Source of the DNA: Pseudomonadota bacterium
GTDB taxonomy: Bacteria; Bdellovibrionota_C; UBA2361; OMII01
DNA: 64,000 bases
Assembly: GCA_027485595.1 (NCBI GenBank)
Contig: JAIXQT010000249.1
Coordinates: forward strand, 5,320 to 69,319
Reading direction: 5' to 3'
Part shown: positions 4,485 to 62,192 of the stretch, in pieces
Numbering within the stretch: position 1 is the stretch's first letter
How the letters are laid out: each line of letters starts with the position of its first letter
Notes under the pieces: generated by a model
Told to the model about the DNA's origin: nothing
What the model saw: the letters and a program-made list of their open reading frames with translations, nothing else
Database searches by the model: none
Made by a program: the position numbers and the translations under genes

Positions 4485-5498
4485 TCAATGAGGCTCAACC
4501 TCTATCTGCGACCCCTTAAAACGCAGGACCTGGTAGTCGAAGTCAAGGTGACGGTCTCCTTCTTCGTTCACCTCATGAAGCCCGACGATAGCGAACGGCT
4601 TGTCTGTGGTACCGGTTACCAAGAGAGCGGCGTCGTGGAATACCGCGGCCGACACCACATGATCCGACCTTCCGTGACGATCGGTATAGCTCCTTATAAA
4701 TTCTGGAGAGAGCCGAGGTGCTGTAAACCAAACACCCTCAAAAGCTCCTGCCGCGCTCTCAATATCAGCCGACGCCTCAATGAAATTGCACCCAATCAGA
4801 GGGATATCAACACGAAGAGAACGAAGCTGTCGCGCAAAGCGTCCATTCAATCCCGCCGCAAGACACACACCTATCGCGTCAAAGCCACCCGCCTTCGCTT
4901 TCAGGATTGAGGCTTGAAAACTATCTGGATTGGTCGAGAAATCCTCCCATATACTATCCGGGAATTCGTCCGTCAGCGCGCGAGCCCATTCAGTGGTGTA
5001 GGTATGCGTTGAGGTGAAGAGCGCGAGTTTCTTATATCCCCGCCGCTTTATCTCGCCCGCCATGAAGGAGAAATCCTTCGCGTTTGAGGTCCACAGTCTA
5101 AGAGCGTACGGATTATCCGCGAACTTAACACCTGACGCCCACGCAAGGAGCGGGATTTTATGTTTCAACGCTATCGGCGCGATAGCCTGCGCGGTGACAG
5201 TATCACCCACGAGAACGCCTGAGATCTTGTCCACCTCAACTAATTTGCGAAACGCGGAGACGCTCCGGGCGGGAAGAAACCCATCATCTTCGTAGATGAA
5301 CGTAGCCTTTGAACCAACATCGGCCAGCTCAATACCCCGTCGATATGCCTGACCGTAGGCGCCCCAATCCCCCGTATAGCTCGCGAGAACACCAACCTTT
5401 TGCTGAGCTGCCACCGGTGAGCAGAGGAATACAAAGATACATGACGAGAGAAGTGCTCGCTTTACCGAGGGCATGCGTCCGAACATGGAATTCTCCAT
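4485..5498 (-). CDS. Periplasmic substrate-binding protein, LivJ/Peripla_BP_6-like (ABC-type, amino-acid family)
   Basis: Signal-peptide-like SVKRALLSSCIFVFLCSPVAAQQ is followed by KVGVLASYTGDWGAYGQAYRRGIELA, typical of branched-chain amino-acid type binding proteins. The start is ambiguous (Met at 5498, 5486 or 5474; the ORF extends to 5543). Confidence 0.65.
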   Translation of the reverse strand: MENSMFGRMPSVKRALLSSCIFVFLCSPVAAQQKVGVLASYTGDWGAYGQAYRRGIELADVGSKATFIYEDDGFLPARSVSAFRKLVEVDKISGVLVGDTVTAQAIAPIALKHKIPLLAWASGVKFADNPYALRLWTSNAKDFSFMAGEIKRRGYKKLALFTSTHTYTTEWARALTDEFPDSIWEDFSTNPDSFQASILKAKAGGFDAIGVCLAAGLNGRFARQLRSLRVDIPLIGCNFIEASADIESAAGAFEGVWFTAPRLSPEFIRSYTDRHGRSDHVVSAAVFHDAALLVTGTTDKPFAIVGLHEVNEEGDRHLDFDYQVLRFKGSQIEVEPH

Positions 5499-5611
5499 TT
5501 TGCCGCAGGAGAGCAAGGCCGGCACTGCCCCTGCGTGGTCCAAGGCATGGTAGCCATGCTCCGCCAGAAAAGCGAGCCACGCCCAACCAGCAAGCTGATT
5601 TTTAAACTTAC

Positions 5612-5717
5612 CACGTGAACGTGCTCTTAAACGTGAACGTGAACGTGAACGAACCCGATTAATCCCACGACTTTTCGGGTACGTTTACGTTCACGCGCAC
5701 GACCACGTTTACGTCTG
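5612..5717. repeat. ACGT-phased hexamer array forming a ~100-nt imperfect palindrome (copy 1 of 2)
   Basis: The sequence reads acgtga acgtgc tcttaa acgtga acgtga acgtga acgaac ccgatt aatccc acgact tttcgg gtacgt ttacgt tcacgc gcacga ccacgt ttacgt. The arms are mutually complementary around a centre acccga...tttcgggt. A related copy lies at 29438-29536. Confidence 0.8.
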
Positions 5718-5761
5718 AAAATAGGTGGACTTATCTCTCCTCGGCGTTCTTCAACAGGTAT

Positions 5762-7024
5762 CTACCGAAAAATCGGATACCCCTCCGGCGCCGGCAATCC
5801 AAGCACCGCCCTTCGCACGAGATCGAGCGCGACGTACGATGCGTAACTACGGACGTTCTGACGCTCGCTTACGTAGAGACACTTCATCTCAAAGGAGCGA
5901 GACTCTGAGGAGATCCCCACAAAGAAAGTTCCAACCGGCTTAGCCTCTGAACCGCCGTCCGGCCCAGCAACACCGCTAATGGAGACACCGAAGGAGGTTT
6001 TAAACTTCGCTCGAACGTTCTTCGCCAACTCACGTACCGTCTCTGCGCTTACCGCGCCGGTTGTTTCAAGAGTTTCGTGCGAGACGCCAACGATCCGTTC
6101 CTTGATATCGTTACTGTAGGCGACAACGCCCCCGTGAAAGACAGCGGACGAGCCCGGTGTGCGCGTCAAGATCTCTGAAACCATCCCTCCAGTGCATGAC
6201 TCGGCGGTTGCTACCGTGAGCCCCTTAGAGATGAGCAATTGTTGAAGTGAGGTGATGAAGCTCTCCGCGGGATTCTCTGTGAAGATCGTATCTCGTTGAA
6301 GCGCATCCTTCACGGAAGCCACATGTGGCGCAAGGTCAAAGCTCTTCGGAGCTTTAAGAACAACGTGCACCTCAGGAAACGCTGCTCGGTAGGAAACCGT
6401 TATCTCTTGTGGAAGCTTAAGCCCTTCAATCAAACGTCCAACCGTGGACTCAGGCAATCCAAAGGTCTTCATCGTCGCGCGTTGAATCGGCTCAACGCCT
6501 CCACATCTCGCCTCAATCATCGGCAACACCGTGTCGAGGAACATAGGCTTGAATTCACGGGGAACACCCGAGAGTGACACAACGGTCGGACCGCCATCCC
6601 GTGTCATCGCGAATCCGGGAGCGGTGCCGTTCGCGTTCGGAACCATCGTCGCACCGATCGGCAGAAGGGTTTGCCTTCTATTCTGCGAATCCAAAACACG
6701 CCCACGCTTCGCGAAGAAGCCCTCGAGGTGCGCGACCGCGTCAGGGTGCTCCGAAAGCCCAACACCAAAGAAAGCGGCGACCATATCACGGGTAAGATCA
6801 TCGCTTGTTGGGCCAAGCCCTCCTGAGGTGATGATGAAATCGCTTACCGTTGAAAGATCTCGCAATCCCTGAACGAGCTCACTCATATCGTCATCGACGA
6901 CAAGGACACGTTTAAGTTTTAAACCTCGCTCTGAAAGCTCTTTAGCGACAAAATTTGAATTGGTATCAACGACCCGGCCATCAAGAAGTTCAGAGCCAGT
7001 TGCCAGGATTGAAACCGAACGCAT
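5762..7024 (-). CDS. cinA: CinA family protein (competence/damage-inducible; NMN amidohydrolase PncC domain)
   Basis: 420 aa. The N-terminal MoCF-type domain has ILATGSELLDGRVVDTNS and the C-terminal domain has ATAESCTGG. Confidence 0.88.
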   Translation of the reverse strand: MRSVSILATGSELLDGRVVDTNSNFVAKELSERGLKLKRVLVVDDDMSELVQGLRDLSTVSDFIITSGGLGPTSDDLTRDMVAAFFGVGLSEHPDAVAHLEGFFAKRGRVLDSQNRRQTLLPIGATMVPNANGTAPGFAMTRDGGPTVVSLSGVPREFKPMFLDTVLPMIEARCGGVEPIQRATMKTFGLPESTVGRLIEGLKLPQEITVSYRAAFPEVHVVLKAPKSFDLAPHVASVKDALQRDTIFTENPAESFITSLQQLLISKGLTVATAESCTGGMVSEILTRTPGSSAVFHGGVVAYSNDIKERIVGVSHETLETTGAVSAETVRELAKNVRAKFKTSFGVSISGVAGPDGGSEAKPVGTFFVGISSESRSFEMKCLYVSERQNVRSYASYVALDLVRRAVLGLPAPEGYPIFR

Positions 7025-10028: not shown

Positions 10029-12131
10029 ATGTCGAAGGACCTTCACTCCCTAATTGAGGCGGTTCGTTCACGAGAAGCGCGACGACGGCGCGCCGCCGTG
10101 GCCATCAATGCGGGGTTGTGCCTCTCATTCCTTACGGTTCCGTGGGTACTACTTCAACACTATCCATCGTGGCTTCTCCTCGCATGGCTACCGCCACTGC
10201 TGGTGGCTGCGATCTATATCTCCCGGTCAGAGTACCGATCGATTCAGGTCACCAAAGAGGAGGCCTCGGAGATCGTCGACGCGGTGTTACAAACCAAGGA
10301 ACGAGTTCGCACCTTCTCCCTCCTCTCTCAGTCAGCAGCGGCCCCCGATATCATCAGAAGTGAGTTTATCGCCGATCAAATACGCGAGTACATTCCCCCG
10401 CACTGTACCCCTCAGAATCTCTTAGATGTCCGTCTCACCAAGCCACAGAGGTGGACCGTCGCCGCTACGCTCACTGCCGCACTGATTGCGGGAACCCTTC
10501 TCCTCCTTCGTCCCATGACTCCACTCGAGAACGTTGCCGCGACCCTTCAAGCTATCGTAGACGCCCATCCTGAACTCCCCGAACAGGTTAAGGTCGCGGC
10601 CCAAGAGAGCATTCAAAATCTCGGAGCATCAGACCTCGCTGCCGCTCAAGAGTCACTTCAAAAAACTCAAACTGAGATTACCAAAGCGCTCTCAGCGAGC
10701 GTGAAACCTCAAAAGGACGAGCGCACCATCCAACAATCAGACGAGCAGCACCAAACTCAAAAGGAAGCGCCATCCCAACCTGAACCTCGCAAAGAGGAGA
10801 AGGAGCTCGACACGCAGCAGAAACAGAAGAAGCAGGAACAAGAGAAACAAAACGAAAAGCAAAAGGACCAACAGCAGCAATCGCCAAAGGAGCAGTCCGA
10901 GGAGAATAAGCAGGAGGGGGACAACAAAACCTCCGACCAGCAGAACAACGAAGAGCAACAACAGAAAGAGAAGCAGCCATCAAAGGACTCTCAAGAAAAA
11001 TCTGAAGCTGGCGCGTCGGAAAAGGGAGCCCAAAATCAGGAGCAAAAGGGGGAATCCAAACAAGAGCAGGACTCTAAGAAGGACGGCAAATCCAAGAGCG
11101 GCCAGTCGAACAAATCCGAAGACGGTGACGGCGAGGGCTCTGGCCAAGGTGAGGGAGCGAGTGGCTCTGGTGCTGGCAATCAGGGCGATAACAAAGAGAA
11201 GAACCAAAACTCGCAAGGCTCCTCTGGTGACGCAAAAGACGGACAGGGGACGGGCGAGGGGAATTCACAAGGTTCAAAAGGTGGTGAGCAGGGACAACCG
11301 CAATCGGGCTCAGCTCAGGAAGGTCAGCAACAAGGAAACACCCCAGGCGCAGCCGGTCTCGAACAGCTCAAAGATGCCGTAGCCCAAGCGGAGCAAGCTG
11401 TTCAGCAGGAGCAACAAGAGCAGCAGAAGGAAGAGCAAGAGGGGAAGGGAGGCCAAGAGGGCAGGGGTCAGGGCGATAAAGAGAGCGAATCCGGTAAAGA
11501 GTCTCAGGGTAAGGACGATCAGAAGAAAAACGGTGAAGGTAAAGATTCAAAAGGTAAGGAGACTCAGAGCAACAGTGACAAAGGCGACAAGCCCAAAGGT
11601 CAGCAACAGGGCTCTGGTGATTCAAAGGAGAAGCAAGACAAAAAGAGCGATTCTCAGGGCAAGCAGGGCGACGGCGAAAAGGGCACACCTGAAAAGAACT
11701 CCGCCGACAAAAAGTCTGAGAAGGAAGCCAAAGATGAGGGCGAGGCCGGAAATTCAGGCAGCGCCAAAAAGCAGGAGCAACAACAAAAGCCTGCCGAGAA
11801 GCGCGACTCTAAGGACGGGCAATCAGATGGGGTAGGGGACCGATCGGCGATGCCTGACCGCTCAGCACAAGCCGTCAACGACGAGCCCCCTACAGAGGGC
11901 GCTGGGGGCGATATGCCGAACATCCCGCTCACCGGGGAGGAATCAAAGGTAGAAGGGAAGGACGAAGCGCTCGATTCCCGCTTTACCGGCGCTGACACAA
12001 CCCTCGAAGAGAACACATCACCCGCTCAAGCGAAGACCTCGCTCGACGATGTGCTCCTCGCCAAGCCTCAAGGCTCTACACACAAGGGCAGACAACCTAT
12101 CCCCCTTGAGTACAGAGAGATCATGGAATAG
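10029..12131 (+). CDS. Membrane-anchored protein with a ~420-aa K/E/Q/G/S-rich disordered region (function unknown; first gene of the MoxR cluster)
   Basis: 700 aa with hydrophobic helices at about residues 22-64 and 143-160. Residues ~215-640 contain no F, W, Y or C. Same strand as moxR and 42 nt upstream of it. Alternative-frame ORFs in the track here are low-complexity shadows. Confidence 0.6.
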   Translation: MSKDLHSLIEAVRSREARRRRAAVAINAGLCLSFLTVPWVLLQHYPSWLLLAWLPPLLVAAIYISRSEYRSIQVTKEEASEIVDAVLQTKERVRTFSLLSQSAAAPDIIRSEFIADQIREYIPPHCTPQNLLDVRLTKPQRWTVAATLTAALIAGTLLLLRPMTPLENVAATLQAIVDAHPELPEQVKVAAQESIQNLGASDLAAAQESLQKTQTEITKALSASVKPQKDERTIQQSDEQHQTQKEAPSQPEPRKEEKELDTQQKQKKQEQEKQNEKQKDQQQQSPKEQSEENKQEGDNKTSDQQNNEEQQQKEKQPSKDSQEKSEAGASEKGAQNQEQKGESKQEQDSKKDGKSKSGQSNKSEDGDGEGSGQGEGASGSGAGNQGDNKEKNQNSQGSSGDAKDGQGTGEGNSQGSKGGEQGQPQSGSAQEGQQQGNTPGAAGLEQLKDAVAQAEQAVQQEQQEQQKEEQEGKGGQEGRGQGDKESESGKESQGKDDQKKNGEGKDSKGKETQSNSDKGDKPKGQQQGSGDSKEKQDKKSDSQGKQGDGEKGTPEKNSADKKSEKEAKDEGEAGNSGSAKKQEQQQKPAEKRDSKDGQSDGVGDRSAMPDRSAQAVNDEPPTEGAGGDMPNIPLTGEESKVEGKDEALDSRFTGADTTLEENTSPAQAKTSLDDVLLAKPQGSTHKGRQPIPLEYREIME

Positions 12132-50756: not shown

Positions 50757-52514
50757 TTACAGGCCAAGCTTGAGCCGAAGCGCTTCGATCTCCCGCTCTC
50801 GTTCTTCAATAGAGAGTTCGGTGATCCACGGTGGCAAGACAGCCGGATAGCTGCAGTGCTTAGCCGCAATCAAGCCTTGGAATCGGCGACGCTCAGGGAG
50901 CGCCTCGGCTGCCGGAGGACGCCACAGTTCAAGCACCCTTTGGAGGGGTGTATCCTTGTGGGCCTTGGCCTCAGCGATCAACTCGCTGAGATCCCGCGAT
51001 GACCACGTCTCCGTGGTCTTGAGCAACGTCGCTTTGAACTCATTCGGGACGGTGATGCCGGCCCGAGTAAGAAGCTGCACGACGAACTCTTCGCGTTCGG
51101 CGCCTTGCAGATCCAAGATCGGAATCTGCACCGATGCACGCGAAACGATATCCGGGTCGAGCAGGTCAGGGCGTGAGGTCATCAGCACCCAGAGAAGCCT
51201 TCCCCGAAACCGCTTGTCACTCATCATCTGGATGATGCGCCCCGAAAGGCGTTTCTCCGTCTCATGAGAGTCTCGACTGTGCACCGAACCGAATGCCGTA
51301 TGCGCTTCATCGACCGTAATAAGAACACGGCCGAAGTTGAGGAGCTGAAAGCGCAGCAACTCAAAGAGCGCGTCGGTTCCGCCATACCACTGGGAGCGAA
51401 GTCCGGTGAGTTCGATCACCGTACGTCCACTCTTCGCGGCGAAGGCTTCAACCGTATAGGTCTTACCGCCTCCGTTTGGACCGGGAACGATAATCACTGG
51501 CACCGCCGTCGCCGGATCGTCACACCGATCGAAGGCGAACTGCATCGATTCCTTGACTGCCTTGAACCCCACAAGGTCATCTGGTGTGTGGGTCGGCATC
51601 TTGAGGATTGCGATTCCGTTGAGCGCCACCGCGAGGTGGTTGTTGGCTTCCACCAACAGTCCTTTGCGACAGACGGGCTGTTGTTCACCCGCCGCCTGCA
51701 TCAGAACACTCTCCAGTTTCTTGAGCTGCAATCCAGCGCCATCCTGCGCGATCGTTTCAATCGTGGGATCGAACGTCACGTTTGCATACGCAGGCTTTCG
51801 CCCCGTGTGCCGCAGGAAATGGAGCCGCTCGGACTCAGTCGGGAGCCCAATCTCAATCGGCTCGACCGTGGGAAGATTCAGCACCGCGCGATTAAGCTGC
51901 GATAGCTGGTCAACCACGATCACGACCAGGTTATGTCCCTGGTAGAAGTCGCTTTCAAACCAACTCAGAGCCTCAGCGACTCGGAGCCGATCGAGCTCGG
52001 GCAACTTCTCCAACTCACCGCTGGGGAGCATAGTGGCTCCATGAGCGATGAGCACAGCGAGCGCGGGGAGTTTTGGCTCCTTGGCGCGCGCCGCTTCCAC
52101 ACCTTCGCAGATGTGTCGCGCCAACACGAGGTTGGGCAACGGTGCATGGTTGTTGTGCGGGTCGGGCAGGCTTTGCACCTGCTTTGCGACCCCCTCAAAA
52201 TCCTTGCCTGCTTTTTTGAGCGTTTCAGCGACTCCCTTTCGGTCGTCCTCCGAAGGGAAGCTCAAGCCGCGAGCGGGATCAAAGAGGATAGTGTTGAACC
52301 GCACCTCGTCTCCGGCCCTGTCGTCTTCTCGCTGCCAGCGGCCGGTAAGCCGGACGCTCAGCAGATCGATCAGTGACATGTATTCCCCCTTGCGAGGGTT
52401 CCAGAAGAGGTCGTTGCGGTTCCCGTAAAGAACCACCACCCGTTTGCCGCGAAGCGAGAAGGCTCGTTCCACGGAATCAGAGAATGGTGGCCATGAAGGT
52501 GCGGCACTATTCAT
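50757..52514 (-). CDS. Tandem AAA ATPase: degenerate N-terminal AAA-like domain plus intact classical AAA domain
   Basis: D2 has Walker A GPNGGGKTY, Walker B LITVDEAH and the SRH-like MTSRPDLLDPDIVSRASVQIPI. The N-terminal half has an AAA-like layout (VVVLYGNRNDLF, LAVLIAHGA, EPIEIGLPTESERLHFL) but no P-loop Lys. ATG at 52514 overlaps the ABC-ATPase stop by 8 nt (ATGAATAG). Confidence 0.8.
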   Translation of the reverse strand: MNSAAPSWPPFSDSVERAFSLRGKRVVVLYGNRNDLFWNPRKGEYMSLIDLLSVRLTGRWQREDDRAGDEVRFNTILFDPARGLSFPSEDDRKGVAETLKKAGKDFEGVAKQVQSLPDPHNNHAPLPNLVLARHICEGVEAARAKEPKLPALAVLIAHGATMLPSGELEKLPELDRLRVAEALSWFESDFYQGHNLVVIVVDQLSQLNRAVLNLPTVEPIEIGLPTESERLHFLRHTGRKPAYANVTFDPTIETIAQDGAGLQLKKLESVLMQAAGEQQPVCRKGLLVEANNHLAVALNGIAILKMPTHTPDDLVGFKAVKESMQFAFDRCDDPATAVPVIIVPGPNGGGKTYTVEAFAAKSGRTVIELTGLRSQWYGGTDALFELLRFQLLNFGRVLITVDEAHTAFGSVHSRDSHETEKRLSGRIIQMMSDKRFRGRLLWVLMTSRPDLLDPDIVSRASVQIPILDLQGAEREEFVVQLLTRAGITVPNEFKATLLKTTETWSSRDLSELIAEAKAHKDTPLQRVLELWRPPAAEALPERRRFQGLIAAKHCSYPAVLPPWITELSIEEREREIEALRLKLGL

Positions 52515-53427
52515 GCGACACCTCCTTTGCGCGTGGTTCAACAGACACAGCATCCGAATGGGTGGTAACCCTCTCGGAGAGCTTAAGCGGCTTCTGGCCG
52601 TTCGGCTCAATCGCGGTGCGACGAATCAGCTCAACCGAGTCGAGGAAGGCAGCGTCCAGCTTGTATCGCTGGTCGTGCATCTGCCGTCCCCCAGGGGTTT
52701 CGATATCCACCACCACAAGCGCACCGTTTCCGGATGCGCCATCGTCGTAGGTCCAGTGCTGGGAGAGACCGATCACTCGGCTCCCCAGGAACACGGCCTC
52801 GCGCAGATCGTGAGAGACAAAGAAGATGGTCATCTTCCCGCCGTCCCACTTCTCCAACACGAGGTCTTGGATCCCACGACGTGTGGTTTCATCGAGACCC
52901 GAACACGGCTCGTCCATCACCAGCACCTTCGGTTCGGTGATGAGAGCCAACGCGATTGCAACCCGCTGCTGCATGCCTCCGGAGAGTTCGTGGGGGAACT
53001 TCTTTTCAGCGTCCGTGGGGAGCCCCACATCAGCCAGAAGTGCTCGGGCTCGTTCCCGAGCCTCACGACGAACACGCCAATAGCTTGGCAGCAAGAGCAA
53101 CCGTTCAGAGAGGTTAGAGTGAAGGCCTTCGTATCCAAGGGCCACGTTATCGAGGACGGTCGCATGGGGCATCAGGTTAAGTCGGTAGTCTTGGTAGACG
53201 ATACCGGCTTTTGTGCTTACCCCACTAACTTCCTCGCCGTCGATCGCCACTGAACCAAAACTCGGTGAGAGCGCTCCGAAGAGCAGGTTCAGAAGCGTTG
53301 ATTTGCCGCAGCCGGATGGACCGACCGCAGTGACCAGTTCCCCTGCGGAAACTGGGAGGTGAACGCGGTTCAGGATCGTGCGACCCGGAAAACGCATTCC
53401 CACTTCATGGAACAGGATGTTTGACAT
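52507..53427 (-). CDS. ABC transporter ATP-binding protein, NitT/TauT (SsuB/TauB-like) family
   Basis: GPSGCGKST, LSGGMQQR, LVMDEP and the H-loop SHD. It has a ~70-aa C-terminal extension. Confidence 0.88.
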   Translation of the reverse strand: MSNILFHEVGMRFPGRTILNRVHLPVSAGELVTAVGPSGCGKSTLLNLLFGALSPSFGSVAIDGEEVSGVSTKAGIVYQDYRLNLMPHATVLDNVALGYEGLHSNLSERLLLLPSYWRVRREARERARALLADVGLPTDAEKKFPHELSGGMQQRVAIALALITEPKVLVMDEPCSGLDETTRRGIQDLVLEKWDGGKMTIFFVSHDLREAVFLGSRVIGLSQHWTYDDGASGNGALVVVDIETPGGRQMHDQRYKLDAAFLDSVELIRRTAIEPNGQKPLKLSERVTTHSDAVSVEPRAKEVSHE

Positions 53428-53465
53428 GTTGGTGAGTTATTTGATGTGTTTTCGAATGAGCGCGA

Positions 53466-54353
53466 TCACTTTTTGTTGAACCACGGATACCTCCACGAGA
53501 TCCACACACCCAAGAGACGGTCGATGATGAAACAGAGCAGAGCCACCCACAAAACGTAGGGGATGATCTGGTCCATCAACATATTTCTCTTGAGGAGGTA
53601 AACCCGGTACCCAATCCCCGCGGAGGCCGCGAGGAATTCGGCCGCCATAAGACAGGCCACCCCCATTTGGAGCGACTCGCGAATGGCGGTAACGACCTTC
53701 GGCGCGATACCCGGCAGAATGACCCGATAGAGGATCTCAAACTGGGAGAGCCCAAGACTCTGCTTACCTTGGATAAGCTTCATCGGAACCTCGGACGCCG
53801 CGTTGTAGGTCGCGAGCGTTACCGAGAAGAAGAAGCCGATGATGACCGCCATAATTTTAGGCAGCTCATCGATTCCAAAGGCGATGACCAGCACCGGCGA
53901 AATCAGGATCGGGGGAACGAACCCCAGAACCCTAATCACCGGACCGAACATCGCTCCGCAGTACGGGAACGCTCCCATATGCAGCCCGAGAAGTACGGCG
54001 ATACCGACCCCATAGGCGTACGCCCACAGCAGCCGTTTGCCGGACGCGATGGTGTCAACTTTCAGGATCGGCTGTTTGAGTCGCATATCCTCTTTAAGGG
54101 CGATGGTTTTCACCCCGGCAAGGATCTGCTTTGGATACGGCATGATTTTTTCTTTATCGATGCCATCGTTTTCCACAATGCTTGCAGCGTGACGCTGCTT
54201 GGCTTTGTGAATGTATGTTCCGCATAGAACGAGGAACGGAATGATCGCGAGGATCGCCGCTATCGTTCTCGTCGGAACACAGTCGGTGCGGAGAAACGGG
54301 TTTCTAATCCGTTTCCACCACGGTCGTTGCGTCGAAGACGCGCTTGTTTGCAT
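53466..54353 (-). CDS. ABC transporter permease, NitT/TauT (SsuC/TauC-like) family
   Basis: 295 aa with 6-7 TM segments and a BPD_transp_1-like EAA region (QGKQSLGLSQFEILYRVILP). Confidence 0.85.
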   Translation of the reverse strand: MQTSASSTQRPWWKRIRNPFLRTDCVPTRTIAAILAIIPFLVLCGTYIHKAKQRHAASIVENDGIDKEKIMPYPKQILAGVKTIALKEDMRLKQPILKVDTIASGKRLLWAYAYGVGIAVLLGLHMGAFPYCGAMFGPVIRVLGFVPPILISPVLVIAFGIDELPKIMAVIIGFFFSVTLATYNAASEVPMKLIQGKQSLGLSQFEILYRVILPGIAPKVVTAIRESLQMGVACLMAAEFLAASAGIGYRVYLLKRNMLMDQIIPYVLWVALLCFIIDRLLGVWISWRYPWFNKK

Positions 54354-54522
54354 GGTTTTGGTTTTGGGAGTTACTGAATCGTCATGACGTCACCACTCGG
54401 TGGCGCCTGAAGAGCAGTTCAGTATCTGCTTTCTTCGTCTACCCGAAATCCTTGTCGCCAAGGCGTAAGGGTAGATGGAGGAGAAGACAAGTAGGAAAAA
54501 CATTCTAGAAAAACCATCGATA

Positions 54523-54578
54523 GTTGTGTCTGTCGACACAACACCCCGATTTGAGGTGCTGTGTTGACAGACAACAAC
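54523..54578. repeat. Long imperfect hairpin inside the 371-nt SBP-permease spacer
   Basis: gttgtgtctgtcgacacaac (54523-54542, itself an 8-bp-stem hairpin) is complementary to gctgtgttgacagacaacaac (54558-54578). The core TGTCTGTCGACACA matches the reverse complement TGTCTGTCAACACA at 13/14 positions. Confidence 0.7.
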
Positions 54579-54724
54579 GAATTAAAAACCTTCGTAAGAA
54601 CCGTAAGCACATCCGTGACCTCCTGAACATGTATCGCTACATGCCAGGAGGCTAGGATGGGTTTGCTTTGGGTTTTATTAACCGCACGTTACGTATTTCT
54701 ACATTCCGCACGGAAACTCTTCGG

Positions 54725-55774
54725 TTACTTCGACGCAGCCTTCATATATTGCGTATCGAAACGCAAAACTACGTTGGCTTTATCTCCAACAACCGAACCA
54801 TCAGGAAAGGCGATCCCCAGGGCGTCCACCGAAGCGGCGGATCCAAGGTAGCCTTTGGCGAAGAGGAACTGCCGCACCTTTTCGGTGGCGGCCTTGTTCT
54901 CCGCGCCCTCAGTGAAGCGCACAGCGTCCTCTGGGGTCCAGAAGAGCGCCGTGGTTTTCAACTGCGCGTCATACTCGGCAAGGGTGCACTCGCTGGCTTT
55001 CGCCATCTCCGTGCGCGCCGTTTTGGCGGCCTCCGAACGACCTTGCATCCGACCAAGGATCTGATACCAGCCCTTGGCGAGGATCTGCCCGACCTTGGGA
55101 TTCTTCTTCAGCACACTGGTCTTGACGACCAGGAGATCCTGGATCTCTCCGGGGATCTTTGCGCTGTCGAAGAGCCGCACAGAGCCCACTTTCTGCTCAC
55201 ACTGGAGCGTGAAGGGGGCCCAGGTCGTCACCGATGGCACCTGACCGCTGGTGAAGGCGGCGGTGAGTTCTGATTCGGCCTGGTTGTAGAGGCTAAACGA
55301 GCTGAGGTCTCCCCCAAGCTGTTCAACCCCCCGCGCCAGGAGATACTCGCTCACGGATTTCTCCACGATTGAGATCTTTTTGCCCTTGAGGTCCGCGAAC
55401 GATCTGACCGATTTGCCGTCGCCGATAACAGCATCGTTGCCGTTGCTGTAATCACCCATAACGACCACCGTACTGTCGATTCCGGCGGAGCCGGGACCCA
55501 TCAGGAGGTCCATGTTGGTGATGACGATGGCGTCGGTCTGGCCGGAGGCGTAGTTCTCAATCGTTTCCCCGTAGGTGCGGGGGACGAACTCGAACGTGAC
55601 TCCTTCAGCTTTCCCGAGTTCAGCGAAGATGCCGTTGGTGTCGCCGTAGTAATACGGCATCCAACCGGCGTAGACGCTGATCCCGACCTTGACGGTTTCA
55701 GCGGAAGCGGCGGTGATGCCGCCGATGATAAGGAGCGCACTACATGCGCTGCGAATGAGTGAGGTAAGTTTCAT
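54725..55774 (-). CDS. ABC transporter substrate-binding protein, NMT1/SsuA/TauA-like
   Basis: Signal peptide MKLTSLIRSACSALLIIGGITAASA, then VKVGISVYAGWMPYYY..., DLKGKKISIVEKSVSEYLL, typical of NitT/TauT family binding proteins. Confidence 0.82.
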   Translation of the reverse strand: MKLTSLIRSACSALLIIGGITAASAETVKVGISVYAGWMPYYYGDTNGIFAELGKAEGVTFEFVPRTYGETIENYASGQTDAIVITNMDLLMGPGSAGIDSTVVVMGDYSNGNDAVIGDGKSVRSFADLKGKKISIVEKSVSEYLLARGVEQLGGDLSSFSLYNQAESELTAAFTSGQVPSVTTWAPFTLQCEQKVGSVRLFDSAKIPGEIQDLLVVKTSVLKKNPKVGQILAKGWYQILGRMQGRSEAAKTARTEMAKASECTLAEYDAQLKTTALFWTPEDAVRFTEGAENKAATEKVRQFLFAKGYLGSAASVDALGIAFPDGSVVGDKANVVLRFDTQYMKAASK

Positions 55775-55814
55775 AGTTTTCTGTATCTGAGCGTTCTAAC
55801 GGTTTTGGTGTTGG

Positions 55815-55849
55815 CTCGCCCCACCTTGCTTTCGCAGAGGTGGGGCGAG
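55815..55849 (-). promoter_or_regulatory. 11-bp GC-rich stem-loop directly after the PspA-like gene (intra-operon attenuator or RNA stabiliser candidate)
   Basis: ctcgccccacc (55815-55825) pairs perfectly with ggtggggcgag (55839-55849), with a 13-nt loop and no following U-run on the minus strand. Confidence 0.5.
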
Positions 55850-55863
55850 GTTCTGACCGGGTA

Positions 55864-56685
55864 TTAGCCGGCCATTGTGGGTTTCGTGGCTTCGGTCTCC
55901 TTCTTGTCAGCGCCGTCCGACGTGCCACCTTCGCGCTCTTTTCTGCGCGCGGCGAGCATTTCGGCCATGCGGTTACCAGAGGTCGACTGCGACCCGGCTG
56001 CCTCATACTGAGCGTCCTGACGGGCGACATCGGTGCCGGCGAGACGCTCGGAGATACGAGCTTTGGACTTGAGGTCCTCATTGGATTTGAGAACAGCTGC
56101 CACCGGATCGAACTCATCGTGCTGCGACAGCCCGGCAAGGCGGTCGTTGAGCTCGATAAGCTGCTCCGACGAGACGCGATCGGCGATCGCTTGAGCCTCT
56201 TTAGCAGGCAGATCACGCAGCTCGGCTTGGAGCTTCGTGAGGTTCTGCATGTGAGACTGCATGCTGTTCTCGAGTTCCTTGATGGACTGTGCCAGTTGGA
56301 GCTCTTCCGCTTCGAGGCGCTGAATGTCAGCGTCAAAGCGGTCGAACGCCGCCTGGTGGCGGTCCTTCTCGGCTTGCTCATTGGCTTTTTCAAAGAGGCT
56401 CAGCGCCCCTTCGCGTTTGCCGAGGAGTTCCTTGAGGCTCTTGCCGACCTCGGTGAGGCGATTGCGTTTGCCTTGGATCACGCCTTCCACCTGAGCGACC
56501 GCGTCACGGAGGTCCGTGTAGCGTTTACTCAGGTTCATGGCCTTGATCTCGAAGGCGTCCTTGATACCGTCCACAGAGCCCGTGAATTGGGCTTCTGCGG
56601 ACCGCTTAATTCCGAGCGCGGCTCGGATCCACCGGAACAAAAAGAAGTTCCAGATACTTTTGGTCATTGAGGGTCTAGTTTGCAT
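55864..56685 (-). CDS. PspA/IM30 (Vipp1/ESCRT-III superfamily)-like protein
   Basis: Amphipathic N-terminal helix (SIWNFFLFRWIRAALGI), then long heptad-like helices. LRDAVAQVEGVIQGKRNRL resembles the PspA/Vipp1 helix-1 region, and QRLEAEELQLAQSIKELENSMQ is a further example. The C-terminal tail is charged and flexible. The start is ATG 56685 or 56667; the track ORF extension to 56859 overlaps the upstream gene. Confidence 0.55.
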   Translation of the reverse strand: MQTRPSMTKSIWNFFLFRWIRAALGIKRSAEAQFTGSVDGIKDAFEIKAMNLSKRYTDLRDAVAQVEGVIQGKRNRLTEVGKSLKELLGKREGALSLFEKANEQAEKDRHQAAFDRFDADIQRLEAEELQLAQSIKELENSMQSHMQNLTKLQAELRDLPAKEAQAIADRVSSEQLIELNDRLAGLSQHDEFDPVAAVLKSNEDLKSKARISERLAGTDVARQDAQYEAAGSQSTSGNRMAEMLAARRKEREGGTSDGADKKETEATKPTMAG

Positions 56686-56701
56686 GGTTTGATGAGGTGG
56701 G

Positions 56702-57691
56702 TTACTGCCCTTTGTTTCCGGCTTCGAGATACACCTGATCGTCAACCGCTCCGTTGAGGGCGGGTTTGTTGAGACGACCTTCGACACGACGGGCCGCCTG
56801 GAGAGCCATGGTGAGGCTATCCGGGGCGCCGTTGTGCAGTGCTGCCGCTTGAACTCCAACCGGGAGGTCAGCGGCTATCTCGAGCTTGGCTTCATTGAAT
56901 GCGGTCGTAAGGGCATCGACAGCATCCATCGCTTGTTCCAGTTCCTGTTCCTTCTCTTCGTGCAGTTCGATCAGCCTTGTGAGCTGATTGAACCGTGCAC
57001 GAGCCGTCTCGTCCTCATTCTCAGACAGCTTCCTCTGAAGGCGCGTTCTCTGTCCCCGTTGTGTGCTCACATCGGATTCTTCGAGCGCTTCGTGAAGTTG
57101 ACTGGCCTGTTTGAGGATGACGATACCGTGGAGAAAGTTCTCCTCGGCTAGTTCGAGGTAGCGGGTCGACCGCCGGCCGCGTAACGGATCGTTTATGTGC
57201 GCTCTGAGGTCCTCGATGAGGCCCTCAAAAGCCACCTTGAAGTTTTTGGCGCGGCGAGCAAGCTCCTCCGCATCTCTTCGGTTCAGGTTCTGAATTACTG
57301 TGACAATTTCCTCAAGCTGTGCGCGCCGAAGCGCTTCACGAAACTCAAGGACTACCTTCTTGGCGTATTCAGGCCCGCGGTACAGGTACCGGTAGGCGAA
57401 TGTGCTAAGACCAACAAAGGCGAGCCCTACGGAGGCAACGAGGCCTCCAAGGCTCGCCCCAAAAAGAAGCCCATGCGTCATCAGGACCGAGATCAACCCG
57501 AGCGGGTATCTCCAGATCCATCCGGAATGCATGACCTTCCGCATCGTTCGGCGTTGAATATCAGCAGGGGTAAGGCTGCTGAGCATCTCGGCCGGCGAAG
57601 ACACATCAGTGAAGGAGTCGTTCCCCCACACAGGGCCGGAAGGGGGACCAGTGCCTCCCTCCGGCTCATAATCATATTTTCGTACGGCCAT
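56702..57691 (-). CDS. Two-TM membrane protein with ~230-aa cytoplasmic helical/coiled-coil domain
   Basis: TM pair WRYPLGLISVLMTHGLLFGASLGGLVASVGLAFVGLSTFAY, then helical repeats rich in E/R/L/A (ELARRAKNFKVAFEGLIEDLRA, EEKEQELEQAMDAVDALTTAF). I recognised no family. The architecture is reminiscent of XpaC/TelA-like helical proteins. Confidence 0.6.
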   Translation of the reverse strand: MAVRKYDYEPEGGTGPPSGPVWGNDSFTDVSSPAEMLSSLTPADIQRRTMRKVMHSGWIWRYPLGLISVLMTHGLLFGASLGGLVASVGLAFVGLSTFAYRYLYRGPEYAKKVVLEFREALRRAQLEEIVTVIQNLNRRDAEELARRAKNFKVAFEGLIEDLRAHINDPLRGRRSTRYLELAEENFLHGIVILKQASQLHEALEESDVSTQRGQRTRLQRKLSENEDETARARFNQLTRLIELHEEKEQELEQAMDAVDALTTAFNEAKLEIAADLPVGVQAAALHNGAPDSLTMALQAARRVEGRLNKPALNGAVDDQVYLEAGNKGQ

Positions 57692-57710
57692 CTAAGGCTT
57701 GGTGTTGGTG

Positions 57711-59282
57711 TTAGAGTTTAGTCCCCTCCACCAGGATGAATTCAACTCGGGCCATGCGCGCGCGATACGCTCGCTCACCCTCGTTCTTCTTCCTGATGGG
57801 AGGTTTTGTTGACCCTGCTCCTTCGGCTTTTACTCGGTTCGGATCAACCCCGTGTGTTACGCGCAGGTATTGCGCCACCACTTGGGCACGCTCAAGAGAG
57901 AGCGCTTGATTTTGAACCTCATCGCCGTAGCCGGTGTGACCTCGGATGATCACACGCAACGCGGAGTAGTTGTTATTGAGAAGCTCCGCTGCTTTATCCA
58001 CCGCCTGTTTACCGGATTCGTCGAGCAGGTTGTTTCCCTGCTGAAACGTCACCGGGTCTACATTGAGTGGTCCGTATTCGCGAAGCTTCTTCCATCCGGC
58101 GTCATCGATCTGCTCAAAGGTCACCTCGTTCGCCACGGTCGTGGCGTCAAGGATCCCTACCGAACGTTTCGACAGCTCTTCAAGGACGCTTTTGTTGATG
58201 ATCTGAAACGGATTTACACCCGCAAAGGACTTTGTGCGACGCAGAACGTCGCTGCACGAGCTGACCGTGTCCACGATCTTTTCGCTCGTTCTCGCCCCTT
58301 TTCCAGTATCAACGCCAAACTGCACTTGGCAGTTCTCGAACAGGTCTGCCCAATCGAAATGGGGCAAAACCTGCTCAAGCCGATCCCGCTTAATTCCCGT
58401 ATCTTTCGCCATTTCATCCAGCATCTTGGTTTTGTTCATCTGGTAGTAAGCCAGAGTGCCAAAATACGCTTCGAAGAAGCGGAGCAGCTCGCTTGGTTGC
58501 TTGTCGATCACCTCGCGGTGCACGACAAACACGTCCACGATATACCCCTGGAAGGCATCAGATCCGAGAATAACTTTGAGTCGCTTATCCTCCAAGGCTT
58601 TGGAGAGTTCAGGTTCCCAGAGCATTGCGGCATCAACTTGCCGAGCTTTTAGTGCCTCTTCCACTTTGTCGATGGCTGTCTTCGGCTGTCTCCATCCCGC
58701 GCTTTCACGCAGAGAGGGTAGGTCGAAGTTGGCAGTCACCATGTCGAGGAAGAAGCTGCTCGGACTCGCGTCTACATAGGCTACCTTCGCTCCGTTTAAG
58801 AGCTCGGTTACCTTACCGGTTGGAAAACGATCGCTGTAGCCTACAAGAGCGTCAGCCCCCGCAGAATCTGCAACGACCCCGACAATCACACCTGGGTAGC
58901 TGAGCTTGTGGCCCAGCTCCAGGTAGACATTCACGGGGAGCACCATCGCCTGGTACTCCCCGCGACTAAACTTCTCAAGCCTAGACACATAATCCCCGTT
59001 GTCATCATTGAAGCGGATATCCAGCCCTTTTGTGGGGCCCTGTCTCCGCATCTCCGGTGATTTCAAGAACCAGTATCCGAGATAGCCATCACCCGCGACG
59101 GTGAAGGCCTTTGCTTGCGAGCGAGGGTCGCTCGTTCGAAGTTGCACCCCCTCCTCCGCTTTCTGCTTCCTCATGTCCCAGAGCTTGGTGACCCCCCAGA
59201 TTGCGAGCAATCCAAGGATAGCGATTCCCACCAAGATGAAGAACTTGAAGGAGCTCGGCGGCTCTTCGTTCTCGTAGTTCAC
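57711..59282 (-). CDS. N-terminally TM-anchored binding-protein-like domain fused to OmpA-like peptidoglycan-binding domain
   Basis: GTG start and TM FKFFILVGIAILGLLAIWGV. The central PBP type-2-like region is followed by a C-terminal OmpA_C-like segment: RVIIRGHTGYGD...LSLERAQVVAQYL...ARVEFILV. Confidence 0.75.
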   Translation of the reverse strand: MNYENEEPPSSFKFFILVGIAILGLLAIWGVTKLWDMRKQKAEEGVQLRTSDPRSQAKAFTVAGDGYLGYWFLKSPEMRRQGPTKGLDIRFNDDNGDYVSRLEKFSRGEYQAMVLPVNVYLELGHKLSYPGVIVGVVADSAGADALVGYSDRFPTGKVTELLNGAKVAYVDASPSSFFLDMVTANFDLPSLRESAGWRQPKTAIDKVEEALKARQVDAAMLWEPELSKALEDKRLKVILGSDAFQGYIVDVFVVHREVIDKQPSELLRFFEAYFGTLAYYQMNKTKMLDEMAKDTGIKRDRLEQVLPHFDWADLFENCQVQFGVDTGKGARTSEKIVDTVSSCSDVLRRTKSFAGVNPFQIINKSVLEELSKRSVGILDATTVANEVTFEQIDDAGWKKLREYGPLNVDPVTFQQGNNLLDESGKQAVDKAAELLNNNYSALRVIIRGHTGYGDEVQNQALSLERAQVVAQYLRVTHGVDPNRVKAEGAGSTKPPIRKKNEGERAYRARMARVEFILVEGTKL

Positions 59283-59293
59283 GTTTGTGTTGG

Positions 59294-60013
59294 TTACTTT
59301 ACTGGATCGAAGGACTCTAATTCAGCCGTGGCGTCTGCCAGGGCTTTTTTGAGTTCTTCGAGATTCTGTGCATTCTGATAGAACACGCTCCACTGTCGCA
59401 GGGCGTGGTCTCCTGCCAATTGGAATCCGATGGTGTACAGCGGGATCGACTCCCCCTGATCGAGTAGACGTTGCATCTTCCGTGTGAACGGCGTCAGCGA
59501 GTCACTCGATTGTCCATCGGTAAGGACGATAAGCCGAAACTCACCGTATCCCAACTGCATCGCTCTTTTCGCAACGAGCGTTTCCGTGCCTTGTACGCAC
59601 GCGCGACCAAGCGGGGTTCCTCCGCTGGCAGCAAGGTTGTTGATCGCTTTCAGGATCGCTACTCGGTTTTTGAGACCAAGTGGTACCCGCTCACCTTCTC
59701 CATCCGCGTCGAAGGCATAGAGCCCGATAGCAACCTCCTCTGGGAGTCTGTTTACGAGCTCAAGAGCAGCCATCTTCGCGCTTCGGATACGATCCCCGTC
59801 CATCGAACCGCTCCCGTCTAAGACGAGGTAGAAGTTCTTCTGTAGAGACTGGACCGCGCCCGGCGGTGGAGGGTCAGGAGGCGTTTGCGCGCCTCCTGTC
59901 GTTGACGTTGTATTCGATGCCTCAGTTGCAGGGCTTTTAGGGCCCTGGGGTGGTGGATCGCAACTGGTCAGTCCGACCAGCGCCACACAAGCAAGTGGAA
60001 AGAAACGTTTCAT
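59294..60013 (-). CDS. VWA-domain lipoprotein
   Basis: Lipobox LVGLTSC, a Pro-rich linker and MIDAS motifs LVLDGSGSMDG ... GGTPL ... VLTDGQ. AAAGGAG lies upstream. Confidence 0.82.
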   Translation of the reverse strand: MKRFFPLACVALVGLTSCDPPPQGPKSPATEASNTTSTTGGAQTPPDPPPPGAVQSLQKNFYLVLDGSGSMDGDRIRSAKMAALELVNRLPEEVAIGLYAFDADGEGERVPLGLKNRVAILKAINNLAASGGTPLGRACVQGTETLVAKRAMQLGYGEFRLIVLTDGQSSDSLTPFTRKMQRLLDQGESIPLYTIGFQLAGDHALRQWSVFYQNAQNLEELKKALADATAELESFDPVK

Positions 60014-60038
60014 GTGAGTGATTGCTCCTTTCGTTTAG

Positions 60039-61718
60039 TTACTTGCTTGGGGTGAATTCAGCTGCTTCGGCCTCCACGTTCAACACGCGGAATACGACAC
60101 GACGGTTCGCCGACCATTCTTCTTTGGTTTTAGGTTGCGGGAATTTCGGTGAGGAAACGCCCCTACCCGTAGCCAAGAACTGCGATTCGTCAACAAGGAG
60201 TCCCTTGGTCTTGCAATAGGCCAGGTAACTCTGACGAACCGCGTTTGCTCGATTGAGCGAGAGGTTTTTTGCAGCCAGCTCTTTTTGCTGGACGATAAGC
60301 GGATTTTCACCCGCTGCTCTCGCTTTCTCAATTCCGGTCGGATCACTGTGTCCCTCTACCGCCACAACCGCACCACCGAAGGTGCTGGCGAGCTTCAGGG
60401 CTTTTTCGTAATCGTTAGCGTAGCGCGCTATGTCGAAACTGGCTTGATTGGGGTCGAAGTTAATTTCAACCACAAACAGCGTACCAGAGTCCCACGATGT
60501 CGATTCAGCTTCGATGGCCGAGGCCAACTTGGCGGAATCAAACTTCGCGGACGCGACCGCGGATGTGTCGGTGTTCTTCAGACCAGCGGCGAGTGCCGCA
60601 TAGTCCCATTCAGCATGAGTCAGCGCGGTTTTGCCACGCATCAACCCCATGCCTACTAACGTTGCTTGAATCTCTTCAGAGATGACGTTGAAGTTACGGA
60701 GCGTTCCGAGAGCTTTGAAGAACTGAACATTTCCCGCGTGCGACACGAATTCAGCGTCACTGATCATCCCTTCCACGTCAGCTGTCATCGTTGAAGTGCC
60801 GAACAGAAGCTCGGCGCTTTTCGACAAAAGCTGCTGATACCTCGCACCTTTTTGAGCGCTCATATCACCCAAGGCCTCCTGACCACGCATAAGGACATGC
60901 ACGATCTTCTGCGCCTTGTCGCGGTTGGCGTCCAGCCAGTCCTTGCGGACAGCCCAGACGTCAGCGATCACCTTGCTCGCTGTCTTGGTAGACAGCGAGA
61001 TGCGAGCATCCTTTACAGAACCCTCACTACCGGTCCCCACCTTACCTCCGCTGGTCAGAGCGGCGGCGTCGGGAGAGATAGCAGCGATAGCGGCGATCGA
61101 GGCGTCGGTGCCGAAGGCAGATACGGGATCAACCGCTTTGCCCTTTGTGTCGTATTTCGGGAGGGTGAGCTCCTTCATCCACACAAAGCTCACATCACGG
61201 GGAGAGAGCCCCGCGCTTGAGAGCACCGTTCCCACATAGTCCATATGGGGGCCGAAAAGCTGAAGGGCGATTTTTTTCCCTTTCAGATCGGCCGGCTTGA
61301 GATCGCCACGCACAACCACGGTGTCGCCACCGTTGGACCAGGTAATCTGGTTGAGCACGACAAGCGGAACCCCTGCCTTCGCGAATGCCGGTTGAACGGC
61401 AAGCACTTGGGCCATGGTTCCACGAAAGAACGGCGATTCGCCGTTCAAGACCGACTGCGCCTGTTTGAGAGCGTCATCCTCATGCTTGAGCGTGTAGTCC
61501 ACGCCTTCCGCCGAGTCGAAGCCCTCCATGTCAGCGAGGATCGCCGCCACGTCGCCACCCCACGTGATCACAGGCAGCGTGAGCGGCCCGGCTTTCACAG
61601 GAGATGCCTTCGTGGAGAGGGTGTCCTCAGCAGGTTTGGCGTTTTCGGTAACAACCTGCGCTCCGAGGGGGAGCGCAGACATCATAAGAGCGGCAAGAGC
61701 CGCGAGGTTTGGTTTCAT
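60039..61718 (-). CDS. Secreted NMT1/SsuA-like binding-protein domain fused to OmpA-like peptidoglycan-binding domain
   Basis: Signal peptide MKPNLAALAALMMSALPLGAQV (ATG 61718). ADLKGKKIALQLFGPHMDYVGTVLSSAGLSPRDVSFVWM is typical of NitT/TauT binding proteins. The C-terminus is OmpA_C-like: VAVEGHSDPTG...LSLNRANAVRQSYL...NRRVVFRV. Confidence 0.78.
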   Translation of the reverse strand: MKPNLAALAALMMSALPLGAQVVTENAKPAEDTLSTKASPVKAGPLTLPVITWGGDVAAILADMEGFDSAEGVDYTLKHEDDALKQAQSVLNGESPFFRGTMAQVLAVQPAFAKAGVPLVVLNQITWSNGGDTVVVRGDLKPADLKGKKIALQLFGPHMDYVGTVLSSAGLSPRDVSFVWMKELTLPKYDTKGKAVDPVSAFGTDASIAAIAAISPDAAALTSGGKVGTGSEGSVKDARISLSTKTASKVIADVWAVRKDWLDANRDKAQKIVHVLMRGQEALGDMSAQKGARYQQLLSKSAELLFGTSTMTADVEGMISDAEFVSHAGNVQFFKALGTLRNFNVISEEIQATLVGMGLMRGKTALTHAEWDYAALAAGLKNTDTSAVASAKFDSAKLASAIEAESTSWDSGTLFVVEINFDPNQASFDIARYANDYEKALKLASTFGGAVVAVEGHSDPTGIEKARAAGENPLIVQQKELAAKNLSLNRANAVRQSYLAYCKTKGLLVDESQFLATGRGVSSPKFPQPKTKEEWSANRRVVFRVLNVEAEAAEFTPSK

Positions 61719-62192
61719 TACTAGGTATTGGGTCTGATTGTCGGTTTGATAAACCTCTACGTCGGATGTCCGAGTAACCGTACGAAGAGTCGACCATACA
61801 AACGAGAACACACATGAGAGATATCCCATGCGTCCTCACTCATTATTGTCTTGAAGAAACACTAAGCGTTGTGCGCCTACTGTCTCCTCCTCCATCTACC
61901 CACAATAAAATTTGAAAAGAGCGAACTGTTCCACGCCACGGTAGTGGTCCTAGACATCTCGATTGATAGAGGTGTTTGTGTGATGAACTACGCTGGTAAG
62001 CCCGCAGGCCCCGCGAGGAACAATGTAAGCGGCGCATTGTACCGGAATATTTGGATTCACCCAACTTTTCGAGGAAGTTACGCACTCGGGCACTTAGCCT
62101 ATTGGCAGCTGTCGGGATCGGTTCGGACGGTGGTGTTTTGGGCATATAGCCGTGACTCAATCGATTGCGAGGTCGCCTCTTTGAGGCGACGA

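Follow-up and report, generated by a model that had tools for sequence, protein, structure and literature searches.

The window analyzed here is a 64,000-nucleotide stretch of contig JAIXQT010000249.1 (assembly GCA_027485595.1), and this report concerns two adjacent genes on its minus strand, P0002 and, downstream of it, P0001. An earlier reading of the sequence (hereafter the original prediction) had described a 273-aa PspA/IM30-like protein encoded 16 nt downstream of a protein with two transmembrane (TM) segments. The open reading frames (ORFs) and their spacing were verified: exactly 16 nt separate the stop codon of P0002 from the first ATG of P0001, and both are genuine genes, far from chance ORFs. 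The start of P0001 is ambiguous by six codons, as the gene models of close relatives begin at the second ATG (MTKSIW..., 267–268 aa). The two genes are as follows.

55864..56685, minus strand: P0001, 273 aa (267 aa from the second ATG); predicted divergent PspA/IM30/Vipp1-type protein of the ESCRT-III superfamily (from the ORF, its translation, an AlphaFold (AF2) model, Foldseek and profiles)
56702..57691, minus strand: P0002, 329 aa; predicted TM hairpin at about residues 63–100 and a helical domain of about 225 aa (from helices, hydropathy and synteny)

Relationship of P0001 to PspA and Vipp1

Searches of Pfam, NCBIfam and the PDB (phmmer) with P0001 returned coiled-coil noise only, and a six-frame scan of the whole genome with PF04012 (PspA_IM30) found nothing at the P0001 gene. 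Many weak coiled-coil matches were seen overall, to AAA_13, APG6_N, Rad50 and LmuB. When 1.8 billion cluster representatives were searched exhaustively with a profile, 402 relatives were obtained at E ≤ 1e-3, 252 of them at E ≤ 1e-10, and nearly all of these proteins are 250–290 aa long and match from end to end. To known families we compared a set of 44 distant members (A4, E 1e-17 to 1e-31) and a stricter set of 62 members (A5), all of which have E ≤ 1e-31 to the core profile. Thirteen of the 44 distant members match PF04012 individually, with a best value of 1.4e-13, and the joint A4 profile finds Vipp1 (6zvr) in the PDB at E 1.4e-13, aligning positions 40–257 with Vipp1 30–232. The stricter set contains six weak PF04012 matches (best 2.8e-5), and the four best PDB matches of the A5 profile are Vipp1 chains (E 5.5e-6). 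In both profile searches the C-terminal half, including the LAGxD segment, is aligned to Vipp1 in the same way. When these two sets were compared with canonical PspA of relatives by hhalign, probabilities of 84.6% (E 6.8e-6) and 95.6% (E 1.3e-8) were obtained, against 5.4% for a reversed-sequence control. Members of the P0001 family grade into proteins that are PF04012-positive.

The AF2 model of P0001, built on a 31-sequence alignment, has a mean pLDDT of 76.8, rising above 90 across residues 41–170. It comprises helices α0 (7–35), α1 (38–100), α2/3 (104–191), α4 (194–232) and α5 (238–252), followed by the disordered, charged tail that had been anticipated from the sequence. As modeled, this order follows the α0/α1/α2-3/α4/α5 plan of PspA and Vipp1, except that the arms of the hairpin are longer. 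A Foldseek search of the PDB with the model places Vipp1 at ranks 1–4 and 6–9 with 210–244 aligned columns, and generic hairpins (p85 iSH2, YscO, SMC) appear further down the list. Comparison with unrelated coiled-coil families by Foldseek and profiles therefore leaves the PspA-like reading standing, with a hairpin of ESCRT-III type predicted and Vipp1 on top. We place P0001 in a divergent clade within the PspA/IM30 branch of ESCRT-III proteins, a homology that becomes visible only by way of intermediate sequences and the modeled fold. The kinship originally proposed is supported by sensitive methods (wider profiles and predicted fold) and not by a direct Pfam match.

Both ends of the protein have features of their own. 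Helix α0 is aromatic and basic, being rich in Trp, Phe, Arg and Lys. At the other end, the family shares a helix of pattern M..MLAAR.AE (residues 238–252 in P0001), a linker of variable length and a nearly invariant proline close to the C terminus, where most phyla have the terminal motif RPxI and the clade of P0001 has KPTMAG. This anatomy resembles that of a docking peptide, for which a partner may be proposed by analogy: the tail could bind the AAA ATPase encoded in the same cluster (below) in the manner of a MIM motif. The conserved tail helix and RPxI-type motif lend this idea some support, as does the fact that in minimal clusters the AAA gene adjoins the PspA-like gene; against it, Pfam finds no MIT domain on that ATPase.

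P0002 is a conserved membrane partner

P0002 has a hydrophobic block at about residues 62–100, which its AlphaFold model (pLDDT 76.5, pTM 0.64) resolves into TM helices at 63–77 and 81 to about 100, joined by a loop of three residues. Since basic residues flank this hairpin on either side, both termini are placed in the cytoplasm (N-in/C-in). The C-terminal domain of 225 aa is predicted to be all-helical and is composed of 13% Ala, 13% Leu, 12% Glu and 10% Arg, in agreement with the helical, E/R/L-rich domain of about 230 aa described at the outset. More than 25 loci across phyla have an orthologue directly ahead of the PspA-like gene; identity among these proteins is only 17–25%, and they carry a conserved C-terminal motif, AARRVEDRLR...DDxxYLxAG.

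Comparisons with known families gave little. None of 27 family members matches the Pfam models for Snf7 (PF03357), PspA, PspB/C or LiaI/F, and a scan of P0002 itself with NCBIfam and Pfam gave no PspB, PspC or LiaI-LiaF-TM match. The profile of the family finds nothing relevant in the PDB, hhalign against canonical PspA gives 3%, and the best Foldseek matches of the model are designed bundles at E 0.08, with CdvB2 at rank 26 (E 0.55, probability 0.11). Word-indexed searches for distant relatives returned mostly close kin and syntenic orthologues, none of them Pfam-labeled. The label "divergent Snf7", given in the literature to the TM protein of related operons, was not confirmed for P0002 by Pfam, PDB profile search or Foldseek. 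On the strength of its strict synteny, P0002 is best described as a conserved, dedicated membrane partner of P0001 whose fold family is unassigned; the partnership that was first suggested is supported, and the suggested likeness to PspB/C or LiaI finds no similarity in Pfam or NCBIfam.

A nine-gene operon with an AAA ATPase and envelope proteins

P0002 and P0001 are the fourth and fifth genes (g4 and g5) of a co-directional cluster of nine on the minus strand. The remaining features of the cluster are these.

60039-61718/61829, minus strand: g1, secreted protein that joins an NMT1-like binding domain to an OmpA-like one; its reading frame is open from 61829, with a signal peptide from the ATG at 61718
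59294-60013, minus strand: g2, VWA lipoprotein of 239 aa with a DGSGS motif (DxSxS, MIDAS-type)
57711-59282, minus strand: g3, inner-membrane-anchored protein of 523 aa with an SsuA/NMT1-like binding domain and an OmpA-like peptidoglycan-binding domain
55815..55849, minus strand: GC-rich stem-loop 15 nt past the P0001 stop, with no U-tract
54725-55774, minus strand: g6, free binding protein, TIGR03427-like (329.5 bits against a cut-off of 333.9), part of an ABC importer
53466-54353, minus strand: g7, permease of the ABC importer
52507-53427, minus strand: g8, ATPase of the ABC importer
50757-52514, minus strand: g9, classical-clade AAA ATPase of 585 aa

The sole Pfam match of g9 is PF00004 at residues 374–497 of a 617-aa ORF, and the N-terminal half matches nothing. 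The C-terminal half carries a Walker A motif (GPNGGGKT, 345), a W-Y-G pore loop (376–378), a Walker B motif (VDEAH, 401) and the arginines of an SRPD...R segment (448 and 459). Across 28 orthologues the Walker A motif (GPNGxGKT), an aromatic-aromatic-Gly pore loop, the Walker B motif, Arg-448 and Arg-459 are invariant or nearly so. The best solved relatives in the PDB are VAT, katanin, Msp1, p97, fidgetin and spastin, which are unfoldases and disassemblases; Vps4 is absent from the 60 best PDB matches. Judged by these motifs, the threading machinery of g9 is intact, with an ATP site and an aromatic pore loop of the classical clade. The N-terminal 330 residues contain no P-loop. That this half might be a degenerate AAA domain was considered and set aside, as hhalign of the N-terminal against the C-terminal half gives just 5.4%.

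Two intergenic regions of the cluster stand out. The 101-nt stretch holding the stem-loop at 55815–55849 has a folding energy of −40 kcal/mol (z = −5.8), and the stem-loop is kept in three close Bdellovibrionota relatives with one compensatory pair; it is possibly an mRNA stabilizer or a partial terminator that would step down expression of g6–g9 relative to g1–g5. Between g6 and g7 lie 371 nt without an ORF (54354–54724), far longer than all other junctions in the cluster. PADLOC gave nothing beyond generic matches and no sign of a known defence system.

The cassette is patchily distributed across phyla

A relative of P0001 is present in 40 loci of reference genomes, and in about 25 loci all nine genes occur in the same order. 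Full nine-gene clusters are found in Bdellovibrionota, Acidobacteriota, Aminicenantes, Victivallales and other phyla. The nearest kin of the window's P0001 are in metagenome-assembled genomes (MAGs) of Bdellovibrionota, at 84–95% identity, and further carriers of a relative are Acidobacteriota, Aminicenantes, Victivallales, Poribacteria, Chloroflexota and a Planktothrix MAG. Among cultured Acidobacteriota, the full cassette is carried by Acanthopleuribacter pedis KCTC 12899 (loci L032 and L042) and Sulfidibacter corallicola M133 (L033). In A. pedis two scaffolds carry it, and their ORF coordinates and scores are the same, which may reflect either a duplication or an assembly repeat.

The adjacency of g4 and g5 holds in every locus with a detectable g4, and the cluster can be shorter elsewhere. 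In locus L029, g1–g5 are followed directly by the AAA gene, with no ABC genes. Chloroflexota loci (L047-L053 and L056; for example L052:6119-10705) encode a TM-anchored SBP_bac_11::VWA fusion of about 600 aa and, directly after it, a PspA-like protein and an AAA protein, and these minimal loci have neither OmpA domains nor an ABC importer. Because they keep the PspA-like gene and the AAA gene side by side, these two form the most constantly adjacent pair. An ORF for a helical protein with two TM segments lies just upstream in L052 (about 5240–6090); hhalign, at 1.9%, gives it no support as a P0002 homologue. In an Aminicenantes genome (CP070627.1, L001, 10917–13404) the cassette stops after a truncated binding-protein gene and lacks the permease, ABC and AAA genes; beyond the break lie Mrr_cat and NACHT/AAA_35 genes, and a run of 100 N occupies 11417–11516.

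No relative of P0001 at E ≤ 1e-10 turned up in 60 genomes sampled from the same phylum, of which 19 belong to the same genus. Canonical PspA above the Pfam cut-off is present in 20 of the 61 genomes searched, and the genome of the window has none. The GC content of the cassette (50757–61829) is 55–58%, compared with 48–51% at 26–38 kb of the window. The cassette is patchy in its distribution and was most likely transferred horizontally.

A proposed membrane-remodeling assembly and its alternatives

The explanation that we favor, with a probability of roughly 0.6 for the whole, is that P0001 forms a polymer, P0002 anchors or nucleates it, and the AAA ATPase recycles it. P0001, a cytoplasmic protein, would most likely attach to the cytoplasmic membrane from inside by means of its aromatic and basic N-terminal helix, polymerizing through the long hairpin of α1 and α2-3. 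P0002 would most likely anchor or nucleate this polymer at an envelope complex made up of the TM-anchored and secreted binding-protein::OmpA fusions, the VWA lipoprotein and the ABC importer. Its contact is placed beside the TM-anchored fusion and the ABC permease because so short a periplasmic loop leaves room for no other. The AAA protein, possibly starting from the conserved C-terminal helix and terminal RPxI-type motif of P0001, would most likely thread or extract subunits and so recycle or remodel the polymer, following the logic of Vps4 without being an orthologue of it.

Several observations weigh against this explanation. P0001 and its 31 close relatives all lack a PF04012 match at E ≤ 0.1, hhalign of the core-family alignment against eight canonical PspA proteins of relatives gives 1.7–3.8% and no signal, and the core-family profile (A1) meets Synechocystis PspA chains in the PDB through an out-of-register match at E 0.03 that we did not use as evidence. 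Because the core profile fails by itself, the homology of P0001 is a matter of transitive links in coiled-coil-rich sequence. The Foldseek E-values for Vipp1 are modest (2e-3 to 1e-2), with TM-scores of 0.37–0.57. The best 18-residue hydrophobic moment of α0, 0.44, is equaled in 181 of 500 shuffles of the same 34 residues, and the moment lies above 95% of shuffles in just one of 31 family members; since shuffling reproduces it, the "strongly amphipathic" character attributed to α0 in the original prediction is not supported beyond composition, although the aromatic helix in the α0 position stands. Pfam detects no MIT domain on g9. Finally, in four loci the PspA-like gene has no AAA gene beside the cluster.

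A bolder version of the same idea is that the cassette is a complete bacterial counterpart of ESCRT-III, in which P0002 would be a membrane nucleator of new fold, P0001 the polymer and the AAA protein the disassembler, the whole being activated when the binding-protein::OmpA and VWA proteins sense a periplasmic ligand or the cell wall; we regard this as tentative, with the odds against it. P0002 has also been considered a second membrane-anchored ESCRT-III-like subunit, corresponding to the "SIG+TM+Snf7" proteins of Ravi et al., that would co-polymerize with P0001 or template it as a paralogue. This is unlikely. In related operons Ravi et al. (PMC11237479) took the TM protein for a divergent Snf7, and hhalign aligns the P0002 and P0001 families over 218 columns at E 0.0016, pairing the end of the second TM helix with α0 and hairpin tip with hairpin tip, where reversed controls give E 0.13 and 0.034. 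The probability of that alignment is 16%, however, so that it weakly hints at paralogy, and a compact bundle rather than an extended hairpin is modeled for P0002. The C-terminal stretches of P0001 and P0002 look alike by eye (ARISERLAGTDVARQDAQYEAAG and ARRVEGRLNKPALNGAVDDQVYLEAG); we reject this likeness as evidence, for hidden Markov models of the two segments each find only their own protein among the 14,830 ORFs of the genome. With no member among the 27 matching Snf7 or PspA in Pfam, an empty PDB profile search and no ESCRT-III above the noise in Foldseek, where designed helical bundles rank first, the suggestion in the original prediction of a second divergent subunit is not supported.

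Two other explanations concern P0001 itself. It could be an inhibitor or adaptor of the AAA protein, as PspA is for PspF, with envelope stress freeing the ATPase to act elsewhere, for example on the transporter or the OmpA fusions. E. coli PspA binds and inhibits an AAA+ protein (summarized in PMC7619361), and P0001-type and AAA genes directly adjoin in minimal clusters, but the AAA protein here is of the classical clade, lacks a DNA-binding domain and conserves an aromatic pore loop typical of substrate-threading unfoldases, and P0001 keeps, in its model, the full helix plan of a polymer-forming protein; we consider this role quite improbable. It is very improbable that P0001 comes from an unrelated family of coiled-coil hairpins (SMC-like, TelA-like, phasin-like or similar) and has converged on the shape of PspA. 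Such convergence would fit the missing direct PF04012 match, the many weak coiled-coil matches and the presence of p85 iSH2, YscO and SMC hairpins lower in the Foldseek list, but it sits poorly with Vipp1/PspA at the top of both wider profile searches, Vipp1 at ranks 1–4 of the fold search, the concordant alignment of the LAGxD-containing half, the much weaker reversed-sequence control and the gradation of the family into PF04012-positive proteins.

Comparison with known systems

This type of operon has been predicted before, and the idea of ATP-driven remodeling is not new. Ravi et al. (2024, mSystems, PMC11237479; preprint 2020) described in silico the association of PspA with an "inactive classical AAA + classical AAA" protein, with a membrane-anchored divergent Snf7 alongside. 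The longer operons that they describe also encode an ABC ATPase, a permease and a PBPB+OmpA protein. Giving OGG56892.1 (Candidatus Handelsmanbacteria) and AEY64321.1 (Clostridium sp. BNL1100) as examples, they proposed ATP-dependent membrane remodeling. The present operon likewise brings together genes for a PspA-like protein, a TM-anchored helical protein, a classical AAA preceded by a P-loop-less N-domain, the ATPase and permease of an ABC importer, and a fusion of binding protein and OmpA. It differs in its order, which is binding-protein::OmpA, VWA, TM-anchored binding-protein::OmpA, protein with two TM segments, PspA-like, free binding protein, permease, ABC ATPase and AAA, and in the addition of the VWA lipoprotein and a second binding-protein::OmpA fusion; VWA is unmentioned in the main text of PMC11237479. 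We found no experimental work in the literature on this PspA-AAA envelope operon type.

The locus bears on a statement in a 2025 review (PMC7619361), according to which a Vps4-like ATPase, one that would recycle PspA/Vipp1 polymers, appears to be absent in bacteria. The cassette encodes a PspA-type protein together with a classical AAA and a membrane partner of its own, and if the reading as a complete machine were true, it would fill the "missing Vps4" gap of bacterial ESCRT-III. Since the cassette occurs in cultured strains, ATP-driven remodeling and membrane recruitment of a bacterial ESCRT-III polymer are directly testable.

With PspA and Vipp1 (IM30, PF04012; 6zvr, 7o3w, 8qbr, 7abk) P0001 shares its predicted helix plan and profile homology that includes LAGxD, and Vipp1 is its best structural match. 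Unlike them, it falls below the Pfam threshold, has longer hairpin arms (63 and 88 residues), an aromatic and basic α0 and a conserved tail of its own (MLAAR...RPxI, KPTMAG in this clade), and is partnered with a classical AAA rather than with PspF, PspBC or LiaIF. PspB/PspC and LiaI/LiaF resemble P0002 in being small integral membrane proteins that are encoded beside a PspA-family gene and presumed to act as recruiters, but they have no sequence similarity to it and lack its helical cytoplasmic domain of 225 aa. As for ESCRT-III and Vps4 (CdvB/CdvC; Snf7/Vps4), g9 differs from Vps4 in having no detected MIT domain, in being nearest to VAT, katanin, Msp1 and p97, and in its P-loop-less, possibly degenerate AAA N-terminal half, and no MIM consensus is evident. 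What the locus has in common with these systems is a predicted polymer-forming protein of ESCRT-III fold that is encoded together with a classical-clade AAA ATPase bearing a threading pore loop.

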